This document shows, one piece after another, positions 33,001 through 54,000 of a stretch of DNA of 64,000 nt. The notes beneath the pieces were generated by a model that saw only the letters and a list, made by a program, of their open reading frames with translations, was not told where the DNA came from and did no database searches. Positions within the stretch are counted from its first letter, which is position 1, and every line of letters begins with the position of its first letter. Where the stretch lies: NCBI GenBank assembly GCA_041652815.1, contig JBAZGN010000002.1:77570-141569 (forward strand), written 5' to 3'. The position numbers were made by a program, and so were the translations under genes. The DNA is from Candidatus Omnitrophota bacterium (lineage in GTDB: Bacteria > Omnitrophota > Gorgyraeia > Duberdicusellales > 4484-171).

Positions 33001-36000
33001 GCCCGCCGCAGATTACTGAACGCGGGGTATTATTTAGAGTCTATGCGCCGGGAGTAATGTGGATTTCCGTGGTTGGTGATTTCTTTAAGGCAATTAAAAG
33101 AAAAGATGTTTCCTGGGGTTGGGACCCGGCGCAATTTTCTATGCACAGGAATGACGGCGATATTTGGGAAATAACCATTCCTCTTGAACCGTCAGATGAT
33201 GCATATGAATACCGCTATGCCGTTGCAGTTGAAGGCAGAGGCGGCTGGGATGAAATTAGACCGGCTGCGGATGTTAATTTCCGGCTCAAAGTTACTACCC
33301 CTTATGTGCCGGGCACTACCGAACTGCCACCATCTATTAAACCGGGTTCAAGAATCTATGAATTATTTTTGCGGGTATTTGGCAATTTCGGCCCTAAAGA
33401 GCATATGGAAGAAGGAATAGACATAACTTCCCAGCGTTTAGGAAAGGACGATTTTGATATAGCTCAAATAATGCCGGTGCATCCAGTAGGCATAGAGCAG
33501 AGAAAAGGCGAACCCGGCTCTCCTTATGCGGTTAGGAACGATTTTCAAATCCAGAGTATAGAAACTGTACCCGGCGGATATTTTGGCGAAGAAGGGTTGC
33601 TGTATTTAATCCAGAGTTTAAAAAGTCAGGGAATATTGCCAATATTCGATGTAGCGCTTAATCATACTTCGCCCGACCATTTTCTCATTGGCCTTGTTCC
33701 TCAGATGTGGGTAAGAATTGCCAACTGGGCAGTCCAGCCGAATGAAACTTTTTCTGATATAAGGCAGCTTAATCCTTTGAATTTAGCTATGCGCGATTTT
33801 TCACTTGTATATTTAGCCTGGTTAATTACCCGTTTCGGCGCAAGAGGTTTTCGCTGTGACCTGGCTGAATTCTTACCGATAAGTTTTTGGCAGGAATTGT
33901 TTACAGTCTTAGAGAGATTTGAAGTTTGGTTTTATCCCGACCGGGAAGGCGGCAACGGCTTGCTAAAAATTATGGAAGGGGGATATCTCTACGACCAGGA
34001 AAAAGACAGGGATGATTTAAGATACATCGGGGAAGGCAGGTTTAACTGCGCTTATGGAGTGAGGTTTATGAATGTGGTGGATTATTGTATTAAGGAGCGT
34101 TTGACCGCTTTGGATTTAATTGAAGCAGTGAAAGAACAACAGGCTTTCGGCGGAGCTTCTCTTCTGCAGTTAAGCAATCATGATTGGAGCGCCACAACAG
34201 CAACCGCTGTCCGTTTAGGCAAGCATTTACGTTCCTTTGCCTTTTTCCAGGAAACCGTAGGCGGACCTAAGAATTTAACGTTGACTTTCAGCGGCGATGA
34301 ATATGCTTACCCGTACGCTATCGGCCATATCGGGTTGCATCATTTAAATTTGGAAGCCGGCGACGTGGAATATCATAAATGGCTGCTAAATCTTTTAGCT
34401 CACACCAGAGCGCAGGAATTGGCGGATTTTAAAGCAATCCAACCCGTATTCTTAACCGATAAATTTTCTAAAGAAGACAATAAACGCTGTGTAGTTGCTT
34501 ATTCCAAAACTGCTCAAGACAGAACGTTATATTATTTATTTATCGCCAGAGAGAACGAAGAGCGCTGGGTTCCGGTTGGCGAGCTTATCGGAAGAGAGCT
34601 CACTGGCAATGAAGTTTTTTATGATATAACCGGCGGCAAGGCTCTTGAGCGAGGCGCTCAAATTTGCCAAGGCAAAACCCCGGGCGAAAATAAAGAATTT
34701 ATTATCCTTAAGCCCGGCGCGCCGCTTATGCTTGAGGTAAGATCAAAACAAGGACAAGCTACAAGTTCACCCGTGAAAGTTATAGCTAATAATAGAATTG
34801 AGTTTATAGATCGGTTGCGGCAGGATAACAGGAGGAGCCTCTTCCGTGGCTGGTTGGACCCTCTTGCTGCCGCAGCCGCTATATATATAGGTAAGAGAGG
34901 AGGTTTTGTTCTATCTCCTTTTGAGAAATATTTTGTTATCTCCGGTAAAAACCACGCCCCACCTACGCACTACGCGCTTCCTTCTTCGTTGAAACTCCGC
35001 AGGACAGGCTGGCGGACAAGCCCGCCTGCTGTTTCTTCACCTACTCTTGAGACCAAATTAGAAATCGCATTAGCTACAAACGAAGTTGATAGTAATCCAA
35101 GTTTAGTAATTCCATATTTGGGAGATTGGATTAAAGAGAAACGTTGGTTCATAGATAAAGAAACAACTATTTTAAGCCTTGAAGTAGCCGATACCTTTTT
35201 CTTTTTAAACGATAAACGTTTACAGGGTGCAGTTGTGCAATTCGAATTAAGAGACCCGGAAGGAGCAGTTTTTACAAAACGTTATTTTATACCGGTAATT
35301 ATTTCTATACAACCCGTCGAAACTGTTCCTAAAGCTGATCTGATAAGCGTTACACTCAACGATGGCCAACGTTATTTTTGCTTAGCCGAAAACACTATTA
35401 TTTATCAACGTGCCGTGGTTCAGCTATATCAAAGTAGAGGCTCGCTTAGAACAGACAACGGTGCAGTTATCACTTTTGAATCAATAGAGAAAAATGTCGC
35501 CGCTATCGATGTTAATTCCTTAGGAGTTGAACTGTTAGGTTTGCGTGAACCTTCAAGTAATGCTTTAGTACCGGTTACTGCCAACGAGGACAGGCTAATG
35601 AGCAAAACATATAAAGATATGAGAGGCGATGGTTTTCCTCCTAATTTTGAAGCGCCACGATATCAAGCTTTAGCCCAGGCAGGTTATCCTTATATACCGC
35701 ATATATACGGCACAGCGTATTACACATTAAGCGGTTCAGAGAATATTCCTTTGCATGCTCTTATGGAGGGAATTCAAAAAGAAAATCAAGTTGGATACGT
35801 TTTTTATCGTTCGCTAATAGATATCTTTAATCTTTTTGATACTACCCAGCCTTCTGATTGCCATCAAAGGTATCAAGATAAAATTTTCGCTATTGTTTAC
35901 TTTGCTTATGAACTCGGAAAAACAATCGCCCGCATGCATGCGGCATTTCTATCGAGTGATAGGCCAGATTTTCAGGCAGTATGCGCGGGTAGCAATGATT

Positions 36001-39000
36001 TTCAGAAATGGTCTGGGTTAACCAAGCATAATTTTTCAGAAGCGATGGCAACTTTATGCAACAGGGTTCAACGCGGAACACAATTGGAAGTATTAGCAGA
36101 ATTAGTTAGAAGGCTTGAACAAGTATCACCAGTGGTTATGGATACAATTTCCGGATTCAGGAAGCTTGAGGGTACAATAATGAAAGCGCAGGGCCATGGT
36201 GATTTGCATACTGACCAGGGGTTGATTAAAACTTCAGAATTTTCCCCGTTGATAGAGGCATTTATGGATGCGGTAAATAATGGCGATAAAGCTCAAGCTC
36301 AAAACTTAGCTTGTAATCTTGCTTCAATGGTGCGCTGGCTTGATTTTGAAGGCGTACCGGCAAAAGATAAGGTTGGGCCGGATTATGATTCGCGTTTAAA
36401 CCCATTAGCGGATTTAGCCGGCAGTATCGGAGGAGTCAGGTTTATGCTTCATGTGGTGACAATGCATGACCGTCTTGGTTTACGGCGGGAGAATATTCAA
36501 CATCATGAGGCACAGCGAAAAGCTTCGCTGGTGCTTTCCGGGCAGATACCTGCAGAAGAAACAGCGATACCAGGATTAACTAGCCCGATGATTGATATTT
36601 TCCATATTTGGTTGAACGATATCACTGAATATTTTATCGAAGGATATCTTGAAGAAGTCGAAACTTTAGGCACAGAGGGAAGTATTTTAAAGAAGTGGAA
36701 CAGGGCTCAAGCCAAATCCCTGGTTTATTTCTGGAGTTTTGCAAGGACTATTCATGAATTGCGTTACGAAACCTATGCAAGAGATTGGGGTTGGGAGGGT
36801 ATACCGGCAGGTAATTTGTTGCAGATAATGCATTTACGAAATTTTGCTGGTTTATTGGAAAATGGTTCTTCTCCCGTTGAGGTATATTCCCTGCCTAAAG
36901 CCTCAAGGTCATTCTTGGGTATGCGCACTTTTGGATTAGCTGCGCCTATTTCATACTGGCGAAGTGATTTTGATTTGGGAACGGGGGATTTGGATGGATA
37001 TTTAAAACTTGTTAAATTTTATAAAATGGTAGGAGTCTCTATAGGGTCAAACTTGCCTTTAAATATACCGTTAAGTGATAATTGCCCGTATAACAATGCC
37101 AGCGCCTATATGATGGACCCTGTTTATATTGGAATAAATATGCTTTTAGATTATTTAGGGGTTAATGGCGAAAATGCCCAAAAATATCCTCGCATATTAG
37201 AATTGGTTAATTTAATAAGCGAAGACTATGGCCCGATATTAAGAGCCAAGGCTAAAGCCACTAATTCTTTAACCAGGCAGTTGAAATATTGGGTTTTTCA
37301 ACCGCTTTTTGAGGCATTCAGGGATAATGAATTGCAGCAAGAAGCTTCTTTGATTGCCGATTTCATTATTAATTCCGATACGGATTTAGCTGTAGATAGA
37401 GGAAGCGGGCTCGCCAGAAATTTTAAAAATTACTGTTTACGTAACCCATGGCTGGGAGACCATCTTTTGTTTTTCGTTTTGGCAGATAAATTTAAGAGTT
37501 ATGATTTTAGGCGCTGGCCTAAAGAATTTGCCACACGGAATGCCGCAACAATTACCCAGGCTAAAGTAACATACCAGCAGGATATTATGCTGGGGGCTTT
37601 TCTGCAGTGGATTCTGGCTGAACAGATACTTGAAATAAGAAGGGTTTCCGGCGAGGGAGATTCTGTAGTCGACCATATGTTTGATAAACCTTTTAGCTTT
37701 GGGGCTGCTGATGTTTGGTGTAACTTAGAAGCATTCTTAATTGACCCGGTAACTTTAAAACTGCCATATACACAAGGTGTGCCTCCGCACAGGCTTGATA
37801 TCCCCCAGCATTGGCAATTTTATCTTCTTAATATAAGAAATCCAGCTGCAAAACGCCTGTTGCTTGACCGGTTACGTTTTATGCTGCAATTTTGCGACAT
37901 TTTACGTATTGACCACCTTATCGGATATTACCGCCTTTATCATATGAGCGAAGACCCAGGGTGGGAGATGACTTTAGAGAATCTGGGCATTTGGGCAAGA
38001 GTGCAGGAAATTATGAATAGCAATATGGATGCGGCTGGCAAGCGTTATTGGATTTTTGATGCCATTATCGCCGCCATAAAACAGCATTTTCCTCAAGATG
38101 TTGTAGCCCAGGTTTTCGATGCCAACGGATTTATGCATCATGCCCATACGGTATTAGCTGCCCGTAAGTCTTATGACTTTGCCCAGTGGAATGCACAGAC
38201 CGGCTGGTACAAACAACATTCTTCCGAGCACAGGCAAGATTTACTTTACTGCATGCTTAATCCCAGCGAATACGGCAGCGTGGATTATCTTGAGAAAATT
38301 ATCCAGGAAAATAACGATAAAGGAATGTTTTTGCAGCCGACAGATAGTATACGGGTTTGTTTCTTTAGCCCGGGATTGGGAGAAGAAATAGTATCTGAAT
38401 TCATGCAAATTGCTCAAGAGCAGGGAAAAGCGTTGGTTTTTGAGGATTTAGGAGTTGTGCCGGATAAGCTTGCTCATTCTTTATGGCAGTTACGAGCGAA
38501 GCGTTTTCGAGAACTTTATTTTGGTTATAAACATTTCTTAGGCGACACCAATCCTTATTGGTTTGACCAGATAAAATCTCACGATTTCGCCTGCTTTTGT
38601 TCCCCGGACAGAGTAACCGCTAAAGGTTGGTGGGAAGGAACTGGTCCTCTTTCGCTCCAGAAGTTTTATTTTGCGAGAGATGAGCAAAGACAAAAGGCAC
38701 AAAAGAAACCTATAATCAATTGGCTTAACGACCACGGATACCTGCCTTTAGATTTAGCGCCTATAAATGTTGTTGAGGGAGTGCTTACTTCAGTAGCTGA
38801 TTCCGATGCCCAAGAAGTGGTGGAATTGGCTCCAAACATATTTGATTCCGGAGATGAGGGTATAATTAATTTGCCGGGCTATCTTGATATGTGGACCGCC
38901 CGGGCACCGGTAACAGTGGAAGATTTAATTTATGAAGCCGGCAATCAAAATGAGCCTCGTAACGCAATTGCCGCAAAAGCAGTTAGGCGCATAAGACGTC

Positions 39001-42000
39001 TTTCGCAAATGCGTAACAGAGATTTGTTTGCCAAGCAAGTTCAGCATTTTGACCCCTCAAGGCCGCACATCCTTGCTGTTTATGCTGTCACAGGCGACGA
39101 TTCGAAGCAAATACGCTTCCAAGGAGAGAAATTTTTAGTTGATGTAGTTGTGTATGGTGACTACCGAAAAGTTTCTTTATGGCTTTCTGATGCGGCGGCA
39201 GTTGAGATGAGAGAGGTCCAAGTTATGAAGGGATTGCCGCCGAAAGTTAAGATTGTAAGGGCATATGTTCCTGCCAATTTTATAGGGACACGTGTTTATG
39301 AAATTGATTTATTTGGCCCAAGCCACTATACTTCCAGAATTAATGCTGCCGGCAGAGGTTATCTAATTAGTTTGCCTCAAGGCACAGATTGCAATCCTTT
39401 ATCCAGCCGCTATGGCCGGCCGAAAGCCGGCTCGTCTCCTCTAAGCACAAAGGGATGGAAATCGCCGGCATTAGAAGGGTTTGTTTATTCATTATGGCAT
39501 AAGTTATTTTGTGAAAAAATCGATATAAAAGGTTATTATAGGCAAGAGCTTATGTATCTTGCTGAACAAGAAGTAATGATACCCGCGCTTGGAGCTTACC
39601 TTCTTGACAGCAAATATCTTATAGCCCTTGAAGCCCGGGCAGCTCCCCACCGTATACCTAAAGACCAAATTATGTGGTTAGGAGGCCTTGAGGTTGTTGA
39701 GAGATTAGATTTATTATTACAAGGAAAAGGCTTTAGAGATTTGAATAATGAACAACGCGCTATGGTTCGAGTTATAGTGCGCAATACACTCCAGCATGCT
39801 GTCTCGCAGGGTTTATATAGAGATAGCGATGCAAAAGCGTTAGTGCTTTTGTTGTCTGAGGACAAAGAACCATATATTTATATAATTGATTCAGGTCCAG
39901 GCATGCCGGTAGCGGAAGTAATGGAGAAGGGTTACCTGCGTCAAGCTAGCACTGTGTTCGGAAAAGATTTATTAAGTTTTCGTAAACAGTATGGAGATGT
40001 TAAGTGGGTTATCGATTCAAGGGGGAATGAGGAAAATGTTCCCCAGCGTTGGGATGGAGCGCTTGATAGATTAGCAGACGAGCGTAATACTCCACAAGAC
40101 ATGCCGTCTCAAGGCACGCTTTTTGGAATGGAATTAATGCTTCGCAGCTTAGGTTCTTCTCCGGCCAGTAGCTCATCCGGCGCAACAGTTGCTGTCAGTT
40201 CAGCTGTGATTATTGGTAAAGCTAGAAACAGAGAATATAGGCAGAGCCGCGCCCGCAGGGGAGATGTCAGCTATTCTTCAACTGGCTATATGGGGAGAAC
40301 ACTGATAGTCGATGAGAATGAACCGTTTGAATTAGCCCCTTCCGTTATGCGGTGGCATGATCGGGAGAGTATTGAAGGGTTTGAGCGGTCATTGGATAAC
40401 GCTATCGCTCTTGATTGCGTATCCACGCTATACGCGTTGCTTTCTCTCGAAGCCCGGGATGCGGCCAGGTATGATAAAGAGCCTGATACGTTACCCGAAT
40501 GGATACGTTTCCGCCAGCATCTCGAACAAACAATATTTCGTGTACAGGTAAACCAGCTAAAAGAAGCAGTTGCCGCAGGAAGTGTTAAAGCCATAAGAAG
40601 AGTTTTACGCCGCCTTGTTGATTTAGAAGTATGGTCGGAAAGCCTCCTTGAGCAATATTCCCGGACTCTTGGGCCGCATATTAGCGTCACAAAGGAATTT
40701 ATAGTTTTTAAGAAAGCGCTGCAGGAAGCTTCAAGAATTTTATTCCGTAATAACGCCTCCAGCCCAGCGCCAGATAGAACCGATAATATTGTGCCAATCA
40801 TTTTGATGGAGATTAGTAGAAGAGCAGGGGGGGCTGTGGAGAACCCGGATAGGGTATTAAGTGTAAATACCCCGGAATTTCATCAAACTATCACTAAAAA
40901 TTATGGTGTTAAAATTGGCTACCGTGAATTTATCAGAGTTCTTGGGAGAGATGATTTTACTGATTTCAACTTGCGGCCGTACGGCCAGTGTTGTTTAGTT
41001 TTTACAGATAATGGTAAAGATGAATTTGTAATTACAACATGGGATGAATACTCTTCCAGCCCTGTTTTAGATGGTGTGATGAGCTTGTTTCTGAGGAAAG
41101 AAGGTGTTTCATCTCCCCCCAATATCACTAATGAAGCCATCAGTCCATCTTATGGTGATTTGGGTTTATCGTCCAGAGAAATGATGGGTTTTTGCGGTTC
41201 ATCGCCTGCGCCGGACAAGGAAAATTTATTTTCTGCAAACGCATCCAGCCCCTGCGATGAGCGTCGGAGCCTCAAAAATCCTTGGGCATATTGGGATTTT
41301 AGATACTTGAATCCCGAGACTTTATCAAGACTTAAACAAGACCTTGAACTATGGAAGGCATATTGGAGGCGGGAGAGGTTTTTCTTATTAACTAGAGTAC
41401 CTGCCCACTTAGCCGCCGTGCTGCATAGGGAATATTATGGTTTCGTTGACAGGATGGAAAATGAAGGCCGGAGATATACAGATGCAGAATTATTGTTTGA
41501 GATGATTATGGAGCATGGAAGAGATATAGTTGATAACAATGCGCGGCATGTCATACGGGAAGCTGAAGGTAGAGAACCGGACATAGAAGATGTGCTGGAT
41601 GAACACATTAAAAATCCTGTTTTTGAAAGGCTTTTTATCCAAGAGGAACTATTCGCAGCTGATTATTTAGACTTAGAAAGTATTGCGTTTGATTTCCCGC
41701 CGTATCTTGCGCATCAAAAAAAGGAACCTTTGTTAGATTATCAAGAGATAAAAAGACGCCAAGATGCTGTTCATGAGATTAAAGAACAATGGCTCAAAAC
41801 CAAGGCTGGCGTAGAGGCTGTCTCGAAGACCTTCGCAGATTGCCTAGATGGCTTGCACTGTTTTTGTGGACATCATTTAGGGGGGTGGGTAAATCCCGTT
41901 TCGTTAATCAGTAACGAATTATCAAATGCTATGCATTATAAAAAGCCTTTCGATTCTGCCTGTGAAACAGTAGTTGGTATTGTAGGGGGAGCCAGAATCA

Positions 42001-45000
42001 TTTTAAACTATCTTAACAATGTTTCTTCAGACCGGTTGAAGCAGCTTCGCCGGGTGCTTGAATCTTTGACTGATTCATCTCATCCTTATGGGATTTTTGA
42101 ATTGGGGAATAGCCAAAGCTATAGGACATTGGCTAAATTATCTGAAGGAAAGAACGAACAAATAAGTTTTTTACTTAAAGCGCTTTTTGAGCTAAATACC
42201 TATTTTCAAATCGCCAGATACAATCAGGAGAATGGCTGGGATACTTTCCCGACGGTTTTAGACCCCAAAGACGGACAAGTTCTACGCATAACAAGGGGGC
42301 ATTCGCTTAGAACTTGGGAAGAAGCAAAGTGTGATACGAAAAAAATTTCTGTTCCTAATGATGTTAACTTGGGAGACGGTGATTTTCTAAAAGCTATGGT
42401 AGTGCTTGGGCCAAATGGTAATGGAAAATCTACCTATATTCATATGATTGCGCAATTTTTAGTTTTAATGTCTATGGGTTCTGCCGTGCCTGCTGAATCT
42501 ATGGAAGCTACTCCTGTTGCGTTTACCGCTCTTATTCAGTTAACTAGTAATACTAAACAAGGTGCAAGTCTTGGCTTAAATACTTTCGATAAGCTTAGCG
42601 ACATTCAACGTTTTGCCAAAGTATATCCCCGTTCACTTGTATTTCTGGATGACGTTTTCCGTGTCAGCGATTCCGGGGTTGACTATGCAGCGGAAGAATC
42701 TAACATACGCTACCTTATAGAACAAGGAAACCTTGCAGTTGCAGTTAGTCATCATACTGGTAGCCGAGGGTTACGGGAGTTATGCCGGCAGCAAGGTTTT
42801 AATGCTTTCTATGTTACCGAAGGCCATGAGCTTAAAGAAGGGTGGATACCGGCAGAGGTATTAGTTGCATATCCTAGGGAAGCAATTGAAATGGCAGAAA
42901 AGGTAGGATGGCCGGAAGGATTGCTCACTGATTTTAGAAAAAAACTGGTTAATAACTATGGCAAAGAGTGGTTATTTACTCCGGATTACTTAAAAGATAA
43001 AACAGATAATGCCAATGGAGAAGAAAAAACTAGCTCGCCAACGGAAGATAGAAAATATTTATCAGCAGCGGCTCCGGTTGCACAAAAAATAATAAAAGAG
43101 CCGCAATTTTCAGGGAAGGCAAGGATTATCAGGGAAGGATTGGAAGAATTTGGAATACACGGCCAGCCGGAAAAATTCGCTAATGTTGATAGGCTTGAAG
43201 GAGTTTTAGAGGAAAGAAATTTATTAGCTGTTGAGCCATATGAAGCAACTTCTGATGGAAATAGGAGGAATGTCTACGTGGGCGGTATGTTTGAGGACTG
43301 TATCTGGCGTAAGGTATGCTATGCTGTTTATGAAGTGACGCTACCTTCCCCCGATAATCATTTAAAATTTCTGGAAGTGCTTATGAGTTACGACACTCTT
43401 GTCTGCGGTAGCGAAGATAACAACCCGGTATCACTTTGCTTCAAGGCAGATCCCCCAATTAAACTTTATACGGATTATCTTAGTCAATTAAAGTTGAATT
43501 ACCGTGCATACGACGATGAGGGTAGAATAGTAAATGAAACTGTTAATAATGACACGCAGCACTATCAGGTTGTGTTTAGATTCTTTAATGATATCGCATC
43601 TCTCGTTGCATATCTGGAAGCGACAGCTGTTAGTAGCGTGGTATTAACTCATTATGGTAGAAGAGAATCTTTATCCGGTTCTTCGCCGTCGGCTAATGAC
43701 GGAAAGAAAAAACACGTTGGCCCCAATGATCCTTGTCCCTGCGGAAGCGGGAAGAAATTTAAGAAATGCTGTCGTAGCAAACCATTCCTTCCTTTTGGGG
43801 ATAAGCCTTCTATTCCAGCTCCATTTGTATTACCGCCTCAGCCCTTAAGGCAAGTAACAATAGTAACGGCGGAAAAATTATTAAGAGACGCCTGCGGGCA
43901 AGATATGCAAGAAGGTATAGTGCTTCCCCGCCGCCGCGGCAGATACACATTTTATGAGTTATCTAGACAAGAGGAACATGAATTACGTTCTCTTAACAAA
44001 TGGACCCCAGATTCCGATGACGTTGAAGTAGATAAATTACGGCGCATAGACATGGCAGCTTTAAAAGAAGTAGTTAGGGCACCGTTTTTAATATTTGGCA
44101 TACCGCAGATAGGCCTTTTTGTAGTTGATATTATGGCAGGCAGCGGTTTTCTTGAAGAGGTCTTAGGAAAAGAATTTATAAGCAATAATGGGGTTTTATT
44201 ATTAGACCACAGCTTGGTGCTTCTTAAACAAGCTCAAGATAAAGATTTAGCACCACGCATTGCTGTCGTTAACGTAGAAACTGATTTTCCCGAAGTCGCC
44301 CGAGGGGCCGATGTTTATATGACACTGGACGGTTGGGATATTTTAGTGCGTCCTGATATTGCGGCACGTAAGCTTTTTGAAGCAGCTATACCCGGAAGTA
44401 TTTTGATGGCTTTTCAGTCCGTTAAAGTAGCAACAGGGCCTTTAATGCATGAGCTAAAAGCTTTAGGCTATGGTTATTGCGGCAACCTCAATGCTTTTTT
44501 CATTTCGCAGGAAGGCTCTTACCTTATACATAAGGCCGAAGCAGAGTTAAAGAAAGCTTCAGAAAGAGGTTTTAGTTCTTTAGAGTATTCCCATGCCAAA
44601 GAACGCCTAAGAAGCTTATATAATAATTATACCCTTGACGCGAATCACTATTTTATTCTGAAACTTGCCTGGTGCTTGGAGCAAGCAGGATTTGAAATTC
44701 TTCATAAAGGTGAAATTTGCCGAAGCGCAATAGTGCCTAGAGAGGAAAGGCATAATAAACTTCCTGACGATAAGGGTGGTCTTCGTGAGATGTCGCCGGA
44801 TATAAATAGTACAACGTCAGTGCATGGTTTTGGTAGGGCTTTGCCAAGTGCAGGAGTTTCAGAAGGGAATTTTTATGAGGAATTAACGGTTGGTGCTGTT
44901 GTGGCGCGTAAACCCCTGGTTTTAGGGGGTCAAAAAGCAAAAACCGGCACACAAATTACCGCACGGCTGCCTTTATTATGTAGTTATCGAAATCACTTAA

Positions 45001-48000
45001 GGCAAGCTCAAGGGAAAGATTTAAGAAGCCAATGCATCGCTGAAATGAATTTAGCGCTTTTTGAGAGAGGGTTTGCTGAAAACATAATACATGATGAATT
45101 ATTACAACGGTTTTTCGGCGCAATCGGCGGGCTGCTTACTTTCGAAAATTATTTTTTACAATTTGCTGCCTCAGGAAAACTTGTTGATATGATTCGAAAT
45201 ATTATTGGGATTATGGTTATGCATTACAACCTAAGCTTAGAACAAGCTCAGCTTTTCAGTAACGCTATTAATCAGTTTGTTTCAGCTAAGCTGCGGGTTA
45301 TACAGGGTGTTGAAATAGTTGGGGAAGAGCATTGGGGATTGATAGACGATGAAGCTAGTTCATCGCCGGTACCGGCTGCAAACCATACAGAAGGTTATTT
45401 TAATTTTTATGCCGGTAACCACAGTGAGCAGTTAGAGTTTCATCAAAAGCAAGGCAGAGCGCGTTTACCTACTTCGCAAGAGAACAGATATTTAGCGCCA
45501 CAATTAGAAGCGGCACTTAACTTTTTACGCAGAGAAGATGCTAAAAATTCCCCGGCTTATGCGCCGCCGATAAAAATTATCGATACTGTTGAAATTACTT
45601 TCGGTGTTTGTTTCGACGGACAATATATTTTTGTCGAAAGTCCCCTAATTGATAACCCTCTTTACAATTTAGACGAAATATTCGTTTATATATTTAAATC
45701 CGGTTCAGATTTTTCCAGATGGCGGGTTCAGGCAAAATTTGCCTTATTTGAAATATTTGGCTTAAACAAAAAAACACCGCACAGGATTTCTTCCCCGGTA
45801 AATCTTAGCGACCTAGACCTGATTAAGCAAGTTAAGATAGGAAGCGGCGGTTGGTCTGATATCTTTGTTGCCCCGCACAAGGTGACGGGTATTAGGTATG
45901 CCATTAAGGTATACGAGGAAACCATTGTTAGCGGGTTCAATATGATGCGCGTAGCAGGAGAGGAGCGTTTTCGTATTATTAACCATGTTATGAAACTTTG
46001 CCGTCAACACCCGGAACTGGTAGAAAAAGGTTATATGTTGCGCTATTATTCAAGAGGAGTTTGCTATGTCGAAGAAGATAAAATAATAGAAGAGTCCGCT
46101 GGCAGGAAGGAGCGCCCCTACGTTATCATGGATTATATTGAAGGAGATAACTTATTTGATTTGATGATTAAAGAGGAACACGCGGCTGTGTTAGACGAGA
46201 GAGATACCCGACAATTCCAATTTGATTATTGGACAAAAAGGCTACGTTTAGCCCTTAATGTGGCAATAGCCGTTTCAGCATATCATCATAGCGGATTATT
46301 AGTAAAAGAACTGAAGCCAGGAAATATCATGGTACGGCCGGATAGAACCGTCTGCCTGATAGATTCGGATGGCACGGTGCCAAAGGATTATGATTGGGTG
46401 AGCAATCCACAAGGCATTGAAGATAGGGTAAGGCGTATCCATACGGACTGGTATTCTGAAGGCCACGAGCCTTTTGGTGCTATGTACGACAGGCAAGAAC
46501 AGCTTGAGGAATCTGTAAAGCTATTCACAGAGCAATGGGATATTTATAGTTTCGGATTAACGATGTTTGAGATACTATGTTCGACTTTTGTTATGCGTTT
46601 CATGCCTACAGATGATGATAGCGATATGGAAACGGGTATTCAGGCACTGAGAAATTACCTAGATAGAATGATAGAGGATATCAAAAAAAGATGCAGGTTC
46701 GACCCATTAATGTATGAAACTGAGTCAGAAGTATGCCGTATTATAAGAATGTGCATCGAAAAAGAGCGCAGCAAGCGTTACGAAAATATGCAAAAGGTAA
46801 TAGCGGATTTTGAAAGACAATTACAGAAATTAGAACAAGTGTTTCCTAAAGCCAAAGTTCCCCGTGTCAGCTCGCCTACGGAAAAAAATCAGCTTCAACC
46901 ACAATTTGCGGTAAGCTTTGATGCCGAAAGATTAATTTTAAACAACGCCGCAGATTTAAAAATTGGCGAACTCCCAACGAAGGATATTATTGATATTGCT
47001 CATTTAACTATGCCACGCAGTACAATGCCGGACAATAGGCTTTTTACTTTCGCAATTCAAGAATTAGAAAAAAGAGAGTGGAAAAGTTATTGCGGTTATC
47101 TGCTCGATTCCGACTTGGAATATCTTACGGTGTTCGGAGACAATATTTCTAATTTAGATGGTTGTTATGAAACCGGAGATTATGATGAAGTTATACAGGC
47201 ATTAGGCCTTTGGGACTATATCCATGATTTCTTGCTTGGCAATGCCGCAGGCGTTTATCAACACGTTAAAAACGGCTGCTGGGTTTGTTTAGGTAAACAT
47301 ACAATTATTGCTGATAGCAACGACGTTATTGAGGTTGTAACTTTTGACAATGGAAAGGGGTTTAGGAATCGAGCTGGCAGGCAAGCCAGGATAGCAACTG
47401 CTCTCAAATATGGAAAAACTTTTGATGATGAAGGTATGGGCACAGGATTAAATCACTCTTTACGTTTAAGCGATTTGTTCAGAATTACCCAAGGAACCGA
47501 AATTGCTATTTACCAAAACCGCGGTTATGCGCTTGAGTGGGGCAAAGATAGGCGTGTTTTTTACGCTGATAAATTACCGCTTCAGCCCGGCGTGCTTACC
47601 GAAGCCTGGTTTTATAAAGAAACCCCAGAAGGAGATTATTGGCAGCAATTAGTTACCGAAGAGCAAGAAAGGCTTCCCCATTTGTTATCAACCGCTGGCC
47701 GCACTAGCTCGCCCAGTTTCGATAAAAGCACGTCAAGTAATTTTTATGCTTATATTCGTCAAGGGCTTATTGATACGAATACCCTTAGCCCCGATATTGC
47801 AAATAGAATTAGCGATGAAGAATTAGGGGCATTGGTGCGAATTACAATCACAAGGGAGCGCATAGCCATAGATGATAATACCCAATGCATGTTAAGTATG
47901 ATTACGCGTTTAAACTTGGCTCAATCAGAGTTGTACGATATTATGATTTTTATTGCGCGCTACCTGCCCCGTATTATATCCAATATATTTAGTGATGAAA

Positions 48001-51000
48001 TTGTAGATAATGAAGACGAGATACGAAAGTTTTTTAGTGGAAATCTTTGGAATGCCGAGCGGCAAACTTATGGTGTTGGGGGAGGTAGAGAGCTTGTTCG
48101 TTTAGCTATTGGACGCACTATCAATTATGTAATTAGCAATGGCTTTGATGCTGCGACCAGAACAATCATAGATGTTGGCGCCGGAGAAGGGTTTTTGGAA
48201 ACACTTATTACGCCCTGCGCAATCAATAACGCGGAGGTCATACCATTTGATATTAGTCCTCATTTCCTTTCGCGCATACCCAAGCAGGGGCCCGTTAAAA
48301 GATGTGTAGTTGGGGATGTTTACAACTTTACGCAATGCCTACAAGACAGGGGCATAAAAGAAGCCGATGCAATCATTGCTTTGGATAGTTTTGATACCTT
48401 TGAAAATCTTCCTGCGGCAACGCAGCAATGCTTTAGCCTTCTTCGAGAAGGAGGCAAGATATTTATTTTTCAATCACTTCGGGCAGACCCTCGGCCGAAT
48501 ATAAAAGCAGCACGCAAGCAGGGCGCTGTATATTGCCCAAGGATAGACGCATTTTTCGAAAATCTTGAAGCAGCAAAAGCTGTTATGTATCCTTATTTTG
48601 TTGCAGAGACTAAAGGAAGAAGCGTTGATCCTACTGAATTTTTCTACGCGCAGTATACAAAATTGCGCATGAAGTTAGAACTTAATATTACCACAACTGT
48701 TTATTTCCCACGGCTTATTCAGGCTACAGAAAAAGCTGGTTTCAACATTTTGTACGCAGCAGGCCAAAAATCAAATATCCTCACAGAACGCTGCGCCCGT
48801 CACGAACAGGCAAAGACAGACGATGGGGCTATGATTGTTCCGGACAGGGTTAATATGGTCGATTCTTATTATGGTCAGATAGGCTTGTTAGATATTCCTG
48901 GCGTGCCGCCTGGGAAAATACTGGAGCAGGCTGAAGTAATGATCGTCATTGCGGAAAAACCATCTGCCAGCTCACCCTTAGTACCAGATTTTATGACAAA
49001 AGATATGCGTAATTTAACTGATATCGCACATAATGTTATGCCAGGTACGGCTTCTTTTGATATGGAAAAGTTCAGAACAGCAATGCGTTCCTTACGCCGA
49101 AAAGGTTTTAAGGCAGGATTTATCTCATCCAGAGGTGCCGTGAAACTCACAAAAACAGTATTAGGCAGAGAAGTTGTTGATTTTGTATTCAGTTATGATG
49201 GCTTTGATTGGAGCGGCAATGACGTACCTTTTAAAATTATAAGCAGACATTTAGAAATAGGGCATTTTTGCCAGGGCTTTATTGAGCATCATTTTGATAA
49301 TTTTTTCACTCATGTAAATAAAGGATACGACGTAATTTTAGTGAAACAATTCATGAGCGGCAAACAACCGCCTCTTTTTGTAATAGTATCTTTCGATAGC
49401 GGAAGAGGGTTTCAAGACAAAATATTAAACAGGATAAAGATAGAAGAGGTATTAATTAAAACACGCTCTGCAGGTTGGGGAGGTGACTGCGGCGTTGGTA
49501 TTAATTATGCTCTTGAGCGCTGCGCACTTTTTAGAATAATGCAAGGAACAGAGTGTGCAATATATAAAAATCCCGTTTATAGGCGTCACTTTCCTTTGCG
49601 TCAGCAGATATTCTATGTAGATAGTTTGCCTGAACAAATAGGAGTTTTTACCGAAGCCTGGTTTTATGAAAATAAGCCACCAAGAAATTACTGGCAAGGT
49701 ATGGTAAGCAATGAAATAGAACGGTTTAAGGAAAATTACCCTCAAGCTGCGATAAGAACGCCTGCGCAGGTTTCTTTGCCGGAAGGCGTTTCTTCCCCCG
49801 CGCAAGAGCTTACTCGGGAGGATATTGACAGGAACATTACTGCAACTTTAAGGCGCTTAAGAAACTGGAGGCATCGGGTTATTCATTTATCAAGAAGCAG
49901 CGACATTATAAAAAGATTCTTTAGCAGCCGTAATCTTTATGAAAGAATAGCCGATTCTTTAAATAATATGGCAATAGAAATACATATTCTAAGAGCTTTG
50001 CCTCATAGCGGATATTGGCAGATAGAAGAAGGGCGTCTATTAAAGATTTTTATAGAGAGAAAACTCTGGTCTAACGGCCCGTGGCGGGGAAAAGTAGTCT
50101 GGTTAACAGCTGCTGCCATAACCGCAACCTTTCCTGAGCCGAAATCACGTGAGATTCGGCCTACTTCTCCTGAAACTAATCAGGAAATTGAAGAAGATTT
50201 CCAAGATTGGTACGCTTGCGAAGCGCGTAATCTTGCAGGGGAGGAGAATGATAGTTTGCCCGATGGGTTTTCCGAGAAAGCTTTATCCGAAATCGCCGGA
50301 GAGATGGCAGGCATAGAGGATTTGTTTGTTTCCATAGAGGTTTCTTCCCCGATTATTTATACTATCGGCCAGACTGAGTTAAGTTTTAGGCGAGGCAAGG
50401 CAAAATTTAATAAAAATTATTCTTTATCTTCCGCCGTATCGTCAGCAGCTATCGGAGCAGAACCGGAATTTCCTGCACAATCATTGCCGGATGCTAAGCG
50501 ATTCTGCCGCGCCTATGAAAGTTTTGAGAGCGTAATTAGAGAAGAAGCCATTAAGGAGAGGGCGCTATTTGTCGAATCGTTAGGTTTAAGAAATATTTCT
50601 TTGTCTTTTGCGAAAGTCCGCTTGCCGGATGGTTCGGAAACAAAAGACGATGATTTTCATAATTTCCGAGACCTCGAAGCATTGGTCCAATACCTGGTCA
50701 AACAATTTGTTATGAACGGCGTTCACGTAAAAGATTATATTAGCAAGTCATACCCGCTTAAGCTTGATATTATTATGGTGCAAGAAAAAGATTTGACGGT
50801 TGAAGTGGTAACCCCAGGGACAACGATGGATCTTGAGAAAACCAGCGCTTTTGGGTTTTCTACTATGGTGAATCGGATACCCGGCATAGGCGGCAGAGGC
50901 ATTGCCCTTTATTACATTTTGGCTTATTTTAAGCAATGGGGCATCGGAAAACTTGAGGTATATTCCGGAGAAAGTAAATGGGAGGCATCGAAAGGCTTGA

Positions 51001-54000
51001 TTAAAAAATCAGCAGTTCCTTTTAGGGAAGGAGTTAGTGTAAAATTTTCCATAAAGGCAAGCAGCCACGATATAGCTTCAAGCCCTGCTTCCATAAAAGT
51101 TTATTTGGTTTATCCTTATGGCGATACAGTTTCAATTAGTAAAACCCCATCCCCTGTTCTTTCTAAAAGCGAATACCCAAATGGTTACAGCCTTACCGTT
51201 TGGACATTCAATCATTTAATAGAGCCGGGCCTTTGGTGGGATAATGAGCGGTTTGAAAAAATAGTAAGGGCGGTTAAGCAAAATCAACCGGACATTTTAT
51301 TACTACAGGAGACTACCGTAAGATGGGGCGGGAATACAATCTTTAATAGCGGTTTTGAAATTGCCCGTGCATTACGGGCGGATAATTGTCAACCTGGTTG
51401 GCAGGAGCATCTCAAAGATACAGATTGGGGAAGAACGGGTAATGCTATTATCTGGAGTGATAAACTTGTCAGGATGGATGACAATGAAAAATATTATTGT
51501 GACCTTACTTCCCGCAAGACCGGCGAGAATTTTCTGTTGGGAGTCCGCCTGGCAGTAAAAGCTACCGGTCACGAATTTTATGTTTTAGCAACCCATCTTT
51601 GCCCTTTTTCAAGCCAGGAAAGGGGATATCAACTTGAACAGTTGATTTCATATATCGAAAATAATCTTAAAGCAGGAGTCACTATTATCCTCGGCGGCGA
51701 TTTCAATACTGCGAGCGAAGTAGAAACAAAGGCTATGGTAGAAAGATTAAGCGCCAAAGGTTTTAGAGATGCCGAGCAGGGTTTATATGCCGGTAGATAT
51801 CAATATACCTGGGAGCCTACTAACCGTTACGTATCGGGGTACGATAAAGCCCATTTTGGCCCTAGGGGCTGTGACCGGATTTTTGTCCGTGGACCGCCGG
51901 AAGTTAAAAGTTTTGAAATAGGTTTTAGCAGCGAAGAAACAGCTCTTTCTGACCATAGTGTTCCCGTAGCAACATTGAATATTCCTTTATTTGACCCGCC
52001 TCAAATACCTTGGCTGCTCTGCGCAGGAGATTCGATATTACATGGCCAAAAGTATCCACACGGCTATGTTAATTGCCGGACGCCCTTGGAGCATAATTTG
52101 CGCAAAGCAGAAAGCCCCTATGTCTTTAGAGGCCCTTTTCATGATCCTTACGTTGTCAAAGACCAACAAGCTAACGCTCATCTGGCTTGGAGCGGTATCT
52201 ATACTCATAATGTATATGAAAACCACCCCTTGCTTCCTTATGGGTTGTACGAGCTTATAGAAAGATATCTTGCCGTATCTATGCCGCTTCGTAACCACCC
52301 TCGTTCGGCAGTTTTTATCCATATCGGCACCAATGACGTATCTGATTTAAATGTTTCTTTAGACGAATCAGTTGCTTACGTTAAGAAGATGATTGATTTC
52401 ATCGATAGCTATGACCCTACCATCAGCGTATATGTTGCCTTGATTATCCCTAGAAACGGCGATAACTCAAGAACCGAAGAATATAACCGAAAACTTAAGA
52501 AGATGCTTTTAGCCTACAAAAGGGGAAAAACCAATCTTTATATTATTGATATCTATGGCGCATTTTTGAGTAACCCGGACTGGAGAGGGAATTATTTTTA
52601 TCCTTGGGACCACATACATCCTAATGGCGCAGGATATAAAGCCATTGCCAGAGCCGCTTCCGAGGTAATAGTTAAGTCATCAAGCCCTATCGAAGACAAT
52701 GTCCAGCTACGGCAGGGTGGGGTGCGATTTAAAGATTTTTCCGCTTTTTCGCAAAATGAAGCGATTAGCTTATTCCCTTTAACGCAAATTAAAGCAGTGT
52801 TTGATTTTCTATCGAACGATTTGTATGTGGCAAAACATCTCGGCGCTAGAATATCTTTCTTAACTGACGGCGATTGTCGTTGTTTCGCAATTCCCTTAAC
52901 GCAAGATGGTTTTGTTACCCTAGAACTCCTTAATGGGGTGAATTGCTTAGCCAAATTAGAGGCGGCTATCGATTCCAATAAAGGCAATATTTATTTTAAG
53001 CCTTGGTTAAGTGAAACACCAAACCTGCGTCATAAAGGGGTAGGTTCGGCATGGGCCAGAGAAATTATTTTGCCTTATTTCAGCAGGCAAGGCGCGAAAA
53101 AAGCAATCATTTATTGGCAATGCTCACATTCTGAATATGAACATCTATTGGGAAAGCTCGTCGGCGCTGTAAGCTATGTAACTTCAACTCAAGGCCGAAC
53201 TGCCTATATGGTCGGTGAAATTGACTTGAAAGATTATAGTTCATCTCCCTCTATGCTTTTGTTGGAATGGTCATTCAGCGGAGAAAAAGATAGAAAAAAA
53301 GCAGCAGAGATGGCCACATATTTTGGTAATGAGCTAAGGAGGAAGTTAAAAGAGAAAAATTTTGATTACCTTACTGCCGGGGTAGGAAACGCCTGTTGCG
53401 AAATGGCTTTGAATATGATGGTGCATGCCGGAGGCGGAAGCATCGAAATATTCTACGATGAGGATTTAGAGGGCGTACAACATCTCAAGGCAATAGGCGT
53501 AGACAATGGCCCGGGGATGGACAATCCGAATGAGTTATTGCAGGAAAGCATAAAAATACACAGAGCATGCCGCGCCGGCACAGGCGATGGATATGCCGGT
53601 ATAGGCATAAGAGACATTGTGATATATCCAAATGGGGTTATTGTTAATACAAAAATCGAAACGAAACCGGTAGCTGAAAAGTGGATTAAGATAGGCGCAA
53701 GCTTAAGGTGGCCGGTTGGAATTAACCGGATAAATATGGTTGAATTACATCAAGAGGAAGAAAGGATAGAATCAGGTCTCGCATTAAGATGCGTTGGTAA
53801 TCCCGAAATCGAGAGAGGGACCGAAATTATTCTAACCTGGAAACAAATGCCGGATGAGGAAATGTTTGAGCTCGAGGAAGAATTACCTGTCGAGGAAAGG
53901 ATTAGCTCGCCGTTAAACCGTAATACTACTTACATTCAACAACCGATAGATAGTAATGTAAACTTCAGCGCCTTTGATATCAAGGAATTAGCCGCGATAA

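Follow-up and report, generated by a model that had tools for sequence, protein, structure and literature searches.

Background

Why should a MutS-like ATPase and a SecA-type SEC-C zinc motif be found next to each other in the middle of a chain of enzymes? This is the question raised by the window, by which we mean the whole stretch of 64,000 nt that was analyzed. The original prediction regarded the two as an odd pairing and suggested that the ATPase might clamp nucleic acids or a partner. The two peptides do lie in one polypeptide, ~430 aa apart: the 11-residue peptide containing Walker A starts at aa 14135 (nt 42405) in frame +3, and the SEC-C box is in frame +3 as well (Table 1). We think it probable, however, that the MutS and SEC-C motifs are each part of their own module, and that these two modules evolve independently within one giant multi-enzyme ORF. 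It is the accident of module order that makes them neighbours, and they are not a new machine; these are ordinary modules in an extraordinary gene.

Table 1. Features of the giant ORF around the MutS-like and SEC-C modules
Feature	Nucleotides	Strand	Residues	Remarks
Giant ORF interior, chain of unrelated enzyme modules	3..64000	+		21,332 codons, open at both window ends
Junction mark A-SSP-C, opens MutS-like module	41244..41252	+	13748-13750	P0043 homology begins 27 aa later
N-terminal helical region of MutS-like module	41253..41660	+	13751-13886	Common to P0043
MutS domain III-like helical lever/core	41661..42233	+	13887-14077	Includes opening motif
MutS domain V ABC-type ATPase	42276..42968	+	14092-14322	C-terminal helices with GWP motif
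Walker A GPNGNGKS	42408-42431	+		Domain V ATPase
Walker B LVFLDD	42636-42653	+		Domain V ATPase; catalytic Glu replaced by Asp
H-loop SHH	~42747-42755	+		Domain V ATPase
Junction mark T-SSP-T, closes MutS-like module	43032..43040	+	14344-14346	
Independent middle module	43041..43679	+	14347-14559	Conserved core aa 14421-14557, nt 43263-43673
Junction mark G-SSP-S, opens SEC-C/methyltransferase-fold module	43680..43688	+	14560-14562	
SEC-C/SecA-like metal-binding domain	43725..43772	+	14575-14590	CXCX8CC ligands, conserved Ser, aromatic
Pro-rich stretch	43773..43922	+	14591-14640	~50 aa; AF2 pLDDT <50 (model residues 246-303)
Class I SAM-methyltransferase-fold module	43923..45359	+	14641-15119	
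Parts of the methyltransferase fold		+	Rossmann 14647-14973; helical bundle 14983-15099	Motif I present
Junction mark S-SSP-V, closes methyltransferase-fold module	45360..45368	+	15120-15122	

One reading frame across the window

The view that the locus encodes an enzyme polyprotein is borne out by the reading frame and its domains. There are 0 stop codons in frame +3 across all 64,000 nt, compared to 768-1859 in the other five frames (a stop density of 7-9% in the other frames of the + strand), and GC content and GC skew are uniform over the window. Along this frame a window-wide Pfam scan finds ~25 domains, from Radical_SAM/SPASM through Sigma70_r2. The ORF, which exceeds 21,332 aa and runs on past both window ends, has at least 25 domain matches from more than 20 distinct families; radical-SAM, sigma-70, kinase and ATPase modules are among its contents. 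The units can be complete proteins. The GH77 unit (aa 12289-13144), whose top matches are from Desulfobacterales, covers 98-100% of the length of stand-alone enzymes of 839-859 aa with ~50% identity (E 1e-266). All this fits a head-to-tail fusion of whole proteins in one frame that resembles the multi-enzyme giant proteins of Omnitrophota.

The Pfam scan of the 21,332 aa found no peptidase or protease domain and none of the SecA family domains (SecA_DEAD, preprotein-binding, scaffold/wing). A single weak hydrophobic 19-mer is present in the same 21,332 aa, with no credible TM helix. The presence of radical-SAM, sigma-70, kinase and ATPase modules together with the absence of a credible TM helix in more than 21,000 aa argues for a cytoplasmic location and tempers the published view that giant-protein domains are predicted to be mostly extracellular. 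An orthologous giant ORF was not found in a protein scan of GTDB genomes or with exact 40-mers in genomes and JGI metagenomes, and an alignment-based metagenome scan gave 600 pattern matches of which 0 were confirmed. Hence, module order was compared with two short fragments only, P0042 (NCBI MBU1125878.1, Candidatus Omnitrophica) and P0069.

The junction marks

The modules are separated by a short pentapeptide, [GASVI]-S-S-P-[VALIT]. SSP occurs 59 times in the window ORF where 3.7 occurrences are expected, and its information content is limited to positions -1 to +3. None of the 59 falls inside the 25 Pfam envelopes, where 10.6 would be expected; this was matched by 0 of 5000 permutations. 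Seven domains begin no more than 25 aa past an SSP (P=0.0008). The marks bracket units equivalent to whole stand-alone proteins. We rejected the possibility that SSP is a DNA-level repeat or a recombination scar, since the 59 sites are written in many synonymous 9-nt encodings, each of which occurs at most 3 times. P0042 is also rich in SSP (5 versus 0.23 expected). We likewise rejected the idea that the motif is common to all giant proteins: P0060, P0079, P0124 and P0131 have at most a weak, non-significant excess.

Stand-alone relatives of the MutS-like module (P0044, P0045 and P0047) stop ~28 aa upstream of the SSP at aa 14344, and the tail of the MutS-like model (residues 576-595) has pLDDT <50. 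The G-SSP-S mark lies within a low-confidence segment (residues 196-231) of the SEC-C/methyltransferase model. The methyltransferase-fold modules of the window and of P0042 both finish with ...DDE(A/S)S right before the closing mark.

The MutS-like module

If the ATPase were a generic P-loop protein, the Pfam MutS_V profile should not match it. It does match, by 2 bits: the score is 32.3 bits with a gathering score of 30.2 (E 1.2e-7), over profile positions 1-111 of 188 only. Two other searches agree with this narrow result. In phmmer against PDB the module matches MSH3 (36 bits, E 3e-8). Structure prediction, which had been proposed as a check, returned a MutS fold: all 50 top PDB matches of the AF2 model in Foldseek are MutS, MSH or MutS2 (E down to 5.5e-14, probability 1.0), and the alignments to MutS, MSH3 and MutS2 structures span 440-570 columns. 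The model is of medium quality; it was made from a thin alignment of 15 sequences and has a pTM of 0.66 and a mean pLDDT of 66, with 70-92 in the ATPase part. Further, the family profile of the clade to which the module belongs matches canonical MutS with E 1.6e-49. Sequence comparison and the predicted fold confirm that the module belongs to the MutS family and that it is not a generic P-loop protein.

Upstream of the ATPase, MutS_III gives a sub-threshold Pfam match (13.9 bits). The motif opening domain III was aligned with MSH3 QPLLKLREINARLDAVSEV, a stretch that scored -2.7 bits and is not significant alone; in the clade it is conserved as P.LD..EIR.RQ.A..EL. The region preceding it (aa 13751-13886) is predicted to be helical with AF2 pLDDT <50, and exhaustive HMMER aligned query residues 27-536 with P0043 516-1043. 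Within the module Pfam finds neither the mismatch-binding domain I (PF01624) nor the connector domain II (PF05188) nor the clamp domain IV (PF05190). The ~228 aa from the domain III motif to Walker A contain no beta-rich insertion and are roughly 90 aa fewer than in E. coli MutS. The N-terminal 344 residues of the AF2 model are all-helical, and since no beta strand occurs before residue 345 we consider domains I, II and IV to be absent. There is no KOW or Smr (PF01713) domain in the module according to Pfam, and the module ends at the junction mark past the ATPase.

Models of complete proteins do not recognize it. The MutS1 model NF003810 gives 49.7-51.6 bits (cut-off 480) and the MutS2 model TIGR01069 gives 26.6-27.8 bits (cut-off 400). 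No dedicated NCBIfam model for the module was found, all NCBIfam scores being 27-52 bits with cut-offs of 300-642. The B12-binding radical-SAM module of the same ORF made us consider a KamC reactivase (NF052383); this was rejected, as the score is 43 bits versus 300, only profile positions 226-430 of 508 are covered, and the radical-SAM module is ~6,000 aa away. A role in defence was rejected too, PADLOC returning matches of the SEC-C tail to E2-like candidate systems and weak P-loop matches.

What the module corresponds to is an unnamed clade of the MutS superfamily that has domains III and V only, and of this clade it is a complete copy. The clade includes P0044-P0047, P0050, P0053 and others, mostly of ~500-650 aa, as well as modules in P0043 (1907 aa) and P0079 (7467 aa). 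Word-indexed homologue searches are dominated by canonical MutS1 and the clade was revealed by exhaustive HMMER only, in which the best 150 of 1317 matches were inspected; the relatives align with most of the module at 27-33% identity (E 5e-51 to 1e-15). Their extent is that of the window module, with the domain III motif marking one end and the GWP helices at the C-terminus the other. The stand-alone members have a signal-like hydrophobic leader at the N-terminus and an intact Walker B DE and GT, whereas the window copy has a different helical N-terminus of ~140 aa, shared with P0043 only among the best 150 of 1317 matches. The gene context of the stand-alone and other relatives gives no functional clue. 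The recurrence of such III+V-only ATPases in giant multi-enzyme proteins (the window, P0043 and P0079) is of wider interest.

Is the module an active ATPase? The module keeps every one of the 15 invariant columns of the clade alignment. It would be expected to bind ATP, since Walker A is intact, as are the Asp of Walker B and the His of the H-loop. The rest of the MutS catalytic set is changed: Walker B DE is DD, GRGT is FRVS, and the signature STFMxE has diverged. At near-invariant positions of the clade the window copy has T387L, E469D and G473V/T474S, with another sequence in place of the signature SLFMAE. P0043 has the same DD / FR[IV]S variant. With Asp for the catalytic Glu, VS for the GT motif and an altered signature region, hydrolysis would probably be slow or nil. 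Gated by nucleotide, the module may then serve for dimerisation or as a conformational switch, and it would not be a sensor of DNA mismatches. The suggestion of nucleic-acid clamping is weakened by the change of the catalytic Glu to Asp and by the absence of domains I, II and IV, the DNA-contacting parts.

What lies between the ATPase and the SEC-C box

Between the two motifs there are two junction marks and an independent module of ~216 aa, which speaks against the pairing, as does the fact that the adjacency is not conserved. This middle module matches residues 13-144 of P0069 with 38% identity. The P0069 counterpart also ends at an SSP (CAISSPIIP), which is followed there by a different module. 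Pfam and sequence searches of PDB gave no match for it, and AF2 is of modest confidence (pLDDT 50-67). It would seem to be a unit unrelated to the modules on its two sides.

Even so, modules that adjoin in one polypeptide could work together physically without their adjacency being conserved.

The SEC-C box and the methyltransferase fold

The SEC-C box is as textbook as had been claimed. Pfam SEC-C scores 34.5 bits with a gathering score of 20.4 (E 1.8e-8), all 16 residues of the box are the same as in the metal-binding peptide at the C-terminus of E. coli YchJ (PDB 9l6b_C), and the box is close to the metal-binding domain (MBD) of SecA (1sx0, 1ozb). An MBD is defined by CXCX8C[CH] ligands together with a conserved Ser and an aromatic residue (bioRxiv 10.1101/613315), and the window box has all of these. 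In the AF2 model, which is likewise of medium quality, with a mean pLDDT of 64 from a thin alignment of 7 sequences, SEC-C is a hairpin with a helical turn between low-confidence segments on both sides; judged from pLDDT alone, it does not pack on a neighbour.

The box is followed by a Pro-rich stretch, whose low predicted confidence suggests a flexible link from SEC-C to the methyltransferase fold. The fold itself is predicted with pLDDT 75-93, and all 50 top Foldseek matches in PDB are SAM methyltransferases (E down to 1e-9). The methyltransferase-fold module is 48% identical to P0042, its closest relative among the matches inspected, and homologous to P0104, which carries Pfam Methyltransf_31/11/25. 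In P0042 the Pro-rich stretch is absent and the domain begins 15 aa past the SSP; upstream, where the window has MutS, there is a signal-peptidase-II module. The SEC-C box is missing in five homologues of the module. We would describe the module, then, as a class I SAM-methyltransferase-fold protein in which the window copy only carries an N-terminal knuckle of the SecA/YchJ type. By analogy, this knuckle may be a Zn- or Fe-binding docking tag or a redox-sensitive tag for the methyltransferase-fold module. The MBD of SecA binds ribosomes and SecB (bioRxiv 10.1101/613315), and YchJ forms a disulfide dimer, triggered by ROS, that binds DNA.

Do the two motifs form one machine?

Several other explanations can be offered for this neighbourhood. 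If the ATPase and SEC-C formed one ATP-driven clamp on nucleic acid or a partner, with the zinc motif as the binding surface, their presence within ~430 aa of the same polypeptide would be easily understood. MutS proteins are clamps on DNA or ribosomes, and the SEC-C-type KKxKKCC stretch at the C-terminus of YchJ contributes to DNA binding (PMC13377102). However, a whole independent module and two marks separate the motifs, stand-alone members of the MutS-like clade end before the first of these marks and lack SEC-C, and the SEC-C box, which sits between two segments of low pLDDT, goes with the methyltransferase-fold module. Both motifs occur together in 0 of 258 retrieved proteins, and no match spans both among the best 150 of 1317 exhaustive HMMER matches, which split by module. 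Since domain I and the clamp domain IV are also missing, we regard a joint clamp as quite unlikely. Even less likely is a link with translation, in which a MutS2-like ATPase and a SecA-type MBD would support or police the long translation, or the export, of the giant protein itself. Collided ribosomes are split by MutS2, whose target is the ribosome and not DNA (PMC10897456), MutS2-disome structures are among the fold matches (7qv3), and ribosomes and SecB are the known ligands of the SecA MBD (10.1101/613315). In Omnitrophota the genomes encode SecB, and the giant proteins often contain the DEAD and preprotein-binding domains of SecA but lack its C-terminal parts. Yet the module scores higher with MutS1 (49.7 bits) than with MutS2 (26.6 bits), both far under the cut-off; it lacks KOW and Smr as well as the catalytic Glu, the 21,332 aa contain no SecA_DEAD, and the adjacency is not conserved.

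A more sober possibility is that both are relics: the MutS-like unit would be a dead pseudo-ATPase spacer and SEC-C a captured knuckle without a specific partner, each retaining only its folding. Altered positions that are near-invariant in the clade, the marginal MutS_V score, the restriction of the SEC-C box to the window copy and the high divergence of giant-protein domains in general (West-Roberts et al. 2023, bioRxiv 10.1101/2023.11.21.568195) would all be explained. But the nucleotide-binding motifs and the 15 invariant columns have been kept, the SEC-C box is letter-perfect compared to YchJ, the unbroken frame of 64 kb argues for purifying selection, and the DD / FR[IV]S variant shared with P0043 points to a conserved subtype and not to random decay. 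We see this as a minority possibility. Finally, giant ORFs are difficult to assemble, and if the frame were an assembly or annotation error, or were not translated as one protein, the neighbourhood would be meaningless. This we can hardly credit. Neither chance nor mixed-frame chimeric joins can leave 21,332 codons with 0 stops, composition and skew are uniform, one junction peptide with varied codons is used throughout, the architecture recurs in P0042 and P0069, which are independent fragments, and such ORFs are present in published long-read genomes. Independent modules brought together by module order remain our preferred reading.

A potential role for the marks

Whatever the two modules do, the junction motif is a more interesting lead than the MutS and SEC-C neighbours. 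With it, the module boundaries of a giant bacterial gene can be defined concretely and in a way open to test, which bears on whether and where giant proteins are processed. A speculative suggestion, to which we give a rather low chance, is that [GASVI]-S-S-P-[VALIT] is a processing code. The giant ORF would be a true cellular polyprotein, cut or otherwise modified at the marks, releasing dozens of stand-alone-sized proteins. Among these would be an ATPase of the MutS-like III+V type and a methyltransferase-fold protein tagged with SEC-C, whose N-terminal knuckle would be a sorting or docking tag (SecB/ribosome) or a redox switch. The cleavage points of giant proteins have been stated to be unknown (West-Roberts et al. 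2023, bioRxiv 10.1101/2023.11.21.568195). If correct, the code would supply these missing points for giant proteins of the Omnitrophota type, and the bacterium would express part of its proteome in the manner of an RNA virus.

Comparison with known systems

With the MutS superfamily the window module shares the VPND..GPNxxGKST block of Walker A, GxPVPA, the hhhhD of Walker B, a TH/SH H-loop and the C-terminal helices, and also the motif PLLD..EI..RQdAV that opens domain III. MutS1/MSH proteins consist of PF01624, PF05188, PF05192, PF05190 and PF00488, of which domains I, II and IV are lacking here; MutS2 is III-IV-V followed by KOW and Smr, and the window module has neither domain IV nor these two. 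It also differs in being embedded in a polyprotein. The SEC-C box has in common with those of SecA, YecA and YchJ the CXCX8CC ligands, the conserved Ser (CPCGSG), the aromatic F and the KK.KK basic cluster. This one is not at the extreme C-terminus of a protein but internal, 15 aa past a junction and N-terminal to a methyltransferase fold; the motor domains of SecA were not found in the window.

We know other examples of many unrelated enzymatic domains on one polypeptide, namely viral polyproteins and the 'polyvalent proteins' of phages and conjugative elements (Iyer et al. 2017, PMC5512222). The short defined sites between domains, candidates for processing, are a further likeness. The window ORF is, however, at least 10 times larger and no protease domain was found in the window. 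Its modules are metabolic and regulatory enzymes and not effectors of replication or conflict.

A further likeness is to the giant proteins of Omnitrophota, which include the 'Archaeovorins' (West-Roberts et al. 2023, bioRxiv 10.1101/2023.11.21.568195). The main texts of that paper and of Nielsen & Lui 2026 (bioRxiv 10.64898/2026.06.07.730766) mention neither MutS_V and SEC-C nor the SSP junction motif. Of the catalogued giants, 94% have TM helices or signal peptides somewhere, in contrast to the window stretch with no credible TM helix. A C39/S8 peptidase at the N-terminus is another trait of these giants; in the window, which covers the interior of the ORF, no peptidase domain was found. What is shared is a single ORF of far more than 10,000 aa with many divergent Pfam families, GT5, methyltransferases, glycoside hydrolase, Radical_SAM, HAD, HATPase_c and kinases being found in both; the signal-peptidase-II module of P0042 also belongs to a family listed for such giants. 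In its architecture the window agrees with the 'multi-enzyme metabolic cluster' class (Nielsen & Lui 2026).

Neighbouring modules rather than a unit

Both a MutS-like ATPase and a SEC-C zinc motif are encoded in frame +3 of the window, at the places given in the original prediction (MutS Walker A at aa 14135, nt 42405; SEC-C at aa 14575, nt 43725). The family calls hold as well. Pfam MutS_V is matched with 32.3 bits, its gathering score being 30.2, though over profile positions 1-111 of 188 only, and SEC-C with 34.5 bits against 20.4; structure prediction (AF2) gives the first unit a MutS-type fold. What finds no support is the functional pairing of the two. They are separated by two junction marks, copies of a Ser-Ser-Pro (SSP) peptide that recurs between the modules of this giant frame, and by an independent middle module. 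The core of the latter (aa 14421-14557) resembles the homologous protein P0069 at 38% identity; we found no Pfam match and no PDB sequence match for it, and its AF2 confidence is modest. The order of modules is not conserved either. In P0069 the copy of the middle module terminates at ...CAISSPIIP, and what follows this SSP is unlike the window's next module. In P0042, the closest sequence relative found (NCBI MBU1125878.1, '[Candidatus Omnitrophica bacterium]', on a contig of 2.2 kb, coding end to end), the methyltransferase-fold domain is preceded by signal peptidase II, not by MutS. None of the best 150 of 1317 exhaustive HMMER matches spans both motifs, and among 258 collected proteins a MutS-type Walker A occurs in 168, the SEC-C box in 2 and both in 0. 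Taken together, the lack of co-occurrence, the two junction marks, the middle module and the unconserved order show that the MutS-like ATPase and SEC-C are neighbours and not a unit. It is possible that they cooperate physically within the polypeptide.

Features of frame +3 (window nucleotides and amino acid numbers)
Feature	nt	aa	Strand	Remarks
Giant ORF	3-64000		+	Stop-free, open at both ends
Radical_SAM + SPASM	708-1616		+	Pfam
B12-binding radical SAM	23361-24335		+	Pfam
GH77 4-alpha-glucanotransferase	36867-39431	12289-13144	+	End-to-end match to stand-alone enzymes
MutS-like module	41244-43040	13748-14344	+	Bracketed by SSP marks
Middle module		14347-14559	+	Separate unit between MutS-like and SEC-C modules
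SEC-C box	43725-43772	14575-14590	+	15 aa past junction mark aa 14560
Methyltransferase motif I stretch	44070-44141	14690-14713	+	Also the frame's only hydrophobic 19-mer
Ser/Thr protein kinase	45828-46784	15276-15594	+	Framed exactly by SSP aa 15263, 15623
Sigma-70 regions 1.2 + 2	60759-61067	20253-20355	+	Pfam, region 2 54 bits
SSP sites, examples	41244, 43032, 43680, 45360, 45789		+	59 in total

The MutS-like module

Membership of this module in the MutS family is secure. Its Walker A block aligns with MSH3 (36 bits, E 3e-8, phmmer against PDB), and the 50 best Foldseek matches of its model in PDB are all MutS, MSH or MutS2 (E down to 5.5e-14). Exhaustive HMMER matches include P0043, a protein of 1907 aa (E 5e-51, query 27-536), and a module of P0079, a multi-enzyme protein of 7467 aa with MutS_III and MutS_V among its precomputed Pfam families. 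Many stand-alone proteins, about 370-770 aa long, match too; their ends fall about 28 aa short of the SSP that the window has at aa 14344. The clade alignment conserves P.LD..EIR.RQ.A..EL, GH.PR, SVPN, TGPN..GKST, G.PVPA, LV.LDE...GT, ATH and a C-terminal GWP, and the clade profile matches canonical MutS at E 1.6e-49. In the window itself MutS_III reaches 13.9 bits, below threshold, and the putative opening of domain III aligns with MSH3 QPLLKLREINARLDAVSEV at -2.7 bits, below significance (HMMER); conservation of the opening motif throughout the clade is better evidence than this alignment. The clade is not covered by any NCBIfam model: scores for MutS1, MutS2 and KamC all stay far below their cut-offs.

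In the AF2 model (pLDDT 66, pTM 0.66; mostly 70-92 for residues 140-575) the chain consists of helices as far as residue 344 and then turns into an alpha/beta ATPase. Since the 50 best Foldseek matches are all of the MutS family, the module is read as domains III and V alone; mismatch-binding domain I, connector domain II and clamp domain IV are absent. Its Walker A and the SHH of the H-loop are intact. Walker B reads LVFLDD, with Asp (aa 14217) at the position of the catalytic Glu, RVS stands in place of GRGT/PGT, and the signature region is altered compared to SLFMAE/STFMVE. P0043 has the DD / FR[IV]S variant in common with the window, so the changes mark a subtype and not random decay. The unit thus joins an unnamed MutS III+V clade as a new member with an atypical catalytic site.

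Degenerate ABC sites and Walker B mutants of MutS provide an analogy for impaired hydrolysis. On this analogy we infer that the module would bind nucleotide and hydrolyse it slowly or not at all. If correct, it would serve as a nucleotide-gated dimerisation or switch unit and not as a sensor of DNA mismatches.

Stand-alone members of the clade (P0044-P0047, P0050, P0053 and others; for example locus L002, 67-1740) start with hydrophobic leaders resembling signal peptides. Such leaders are odd for an ATPase and hint at membrane anchoring. P0079 (locus L003, 6001-28404, on a 370-kb JGI contig) combines its MutS_III and MutS_V with PYC_OADA and methyltransferase modules, and in the ORF directly after it ECH and abhydrolase modules are part of a product exceeding 5382 aa.

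The SEC-C box and the methyltransferase fold

The CXCX8CC ligands of the SEC-C box, its conserved Ser and its aromatic residue are those that define SecA-like metal-binding domains (10.1101/613315). The box matches the C-terminal peptide of YchJ (9l6b_C) with identity over 16 residues and is near the SecA domains 1sx0 and 1ozb; AF2 models it as a hairpin and a helical turn between two stretches of low confidence, residues 196-231 and the Pro-rich 246-303 of the model. By sequence, then, it is a standard metal-binding domain of SecA/YchJ type. What is unusual for that type is where it sits: inside a polyprotein, on the N-terminal side of a methyltransferase fold. SecA-type knuckles bind SecB and the ribosome with Zn/Fe (10.1101/613315), and YchJ undergoes ROS-triggered disulfide dimerisation and binds DNA via KK.KKCC (PMC13377102).

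Downstream of the box, AF2 models aa 14647-14973 with confidence as a Rossmann domain, after which comes a helical bundle. Foldseek places this module with the class I SAM methyltransferases, to which its 50 top matches all belong (E down to 1e-9), and its homologue P0104 has Pfam methyltransferase domains. P0042, 48% identical over the module, begins this domain 15 aa past its own SSP. The SEC-C box is absent from five homologues (P0042, P0104 and segments of P0060, P0124 and P0131), which makes it an add-on to the window's copy. Motif I is D-I-M-A-G-S-G in the window and in P0042, with Met at the first Gly position, and more distant homologues retain D-V-G-A-G-E-G; this Gly-to-Met change may alter SAM binding.

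The SSP junction peptide

The frame contains 59 copies of SSP where 3.7 would be expected (16-fold enrichment), and the median distance from one to the next is 264 aa. No site falls inside the 25 Pfam envelopes (10.6 expected; reached by 0 of 5000 permutations), and 7 domain starts lie within 25 aa past an SSP (1.7 expected, P=0.0008), often only 3-15 aa. Information content is limited to five positions, [G/A/S/V/I]-S-S-P-[V/A/L/I/T], and in both AF2 models the marks lie where pLDDT is low. A DNA repeat is ruled out as their origin: the sites use many distinct 9-nt codon combinations, any single one at most 3 times, so selection acts on the peptide.

What lies between the marks can be seen in the GH77 unit. 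It has 855 aa and matches stand-alone 4-alpha-glucanotransferases of 839-859 aa over 98-100% of its own length (about 50% identity, E 1e-266), those of Desulfonema magnum and Desulfobacterales HSG2 among them. As judged from such alignments, units between SSP marks correspond to whole proteins, and the match suggests that whole genes were captured, possibly from beyond the host lineage.

Several roles can be proposed for the pentapeptide. It may mark where the chain is processed or modified (by proline-directed phosphorylation or O-glycosylation), or it may be a linker. As every junction contains Ser-Pro, it is conceivable that the kinase module phosphorylates the junctions of its own polypeptide. 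The closest relatives, P0042 (5 SSP against 0.23 expected) and P0069, share the motif, and more distant proteins of 6-7.6 thousand aa do not. P0079 has an enriched tripeptide of its own, GFG (18 occurrences, 10.8-fold); other lineages may have junction motifs other than SSP.

The giant gene and its known relatives

According to the stop-codon map of the full 64,000-nt window, frame +3 has 0 stops in 21,332 codons and the remaining five frames have 768-1859. The window is thus the interior of one gene longer than 64 kb. Pfam scans of the whole frame find more than 20 unrelated enzyme families in one polypeptide, in the order Radical_SAM + SPASM, HAD, nucleoside hydrolase, HD, starch-synthase GT5, HAD, Glu/Leu dehydrogenase, cupin, B12-binding radical SAM, CBM48, GH77, MutS_V, SEC-C, protein kinase, methyltransferases, EEP, GDSL lipase, HATPase_c, HTH, sigma-70 regions 1.2/2 and one more methyltransferase. 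Sigma-70 is a piece of the transcription machinery that one would not look for in a multi-enzyme protein; a weak HTH_3 match lies upstream of it (aa 19357-19401).

Oxygen-sensitive cofactor modules (both radical-SAM types) co-occur here with ATPases, a kinase and sigma-70. The one hydrophobic 19-mer in 21,332 aa is weak and is predicted to be a beta strand, not a transmembrane helix; no credible transmembrane helix was found in this length. These modules and the lack of such a helix argue for a cytoplasmic location of the stretch, unlike the published predictions of mostly extracellular domains in giant proteins.

The two papers on giant genes (West-Roberts et al. 2023, bioRxiv 10.1101/2023.11.21.568195; Nielsen & Lui 2026, bioRxiv 10.64898/2026.06.07.730766) speak in their main text of neither MutS nor SEC-C, and of no linker or junction motif. 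We found no description of the SSP peptide in them, and literature searches for these combinations gave nothing relevant. For this reason we regard the SSP motif as the most useful by-product of checking the flagged pair. The pair itself is of modest interest; what merits follow-up is its context, a gene above 64 kb that has a defined junction code. The enzyme chain matches the Omnitrophota giant multi-enzyme proteins of both papers: the 'Archaeovorins' of West-Roberts et al., which carry GT5, methyltransferases, glycoside hydrolases, SAM enzymes and HATPase_c, and the 'multi-enzyme metabolic cluster' class of Nielsen & Lui, which reaches 147,155 aa. With P0042 labelled Candidatus Omnitrophica, an Omnitrophota origin of the gene is probable. 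The window's gene adds to this known kind of giant protein.
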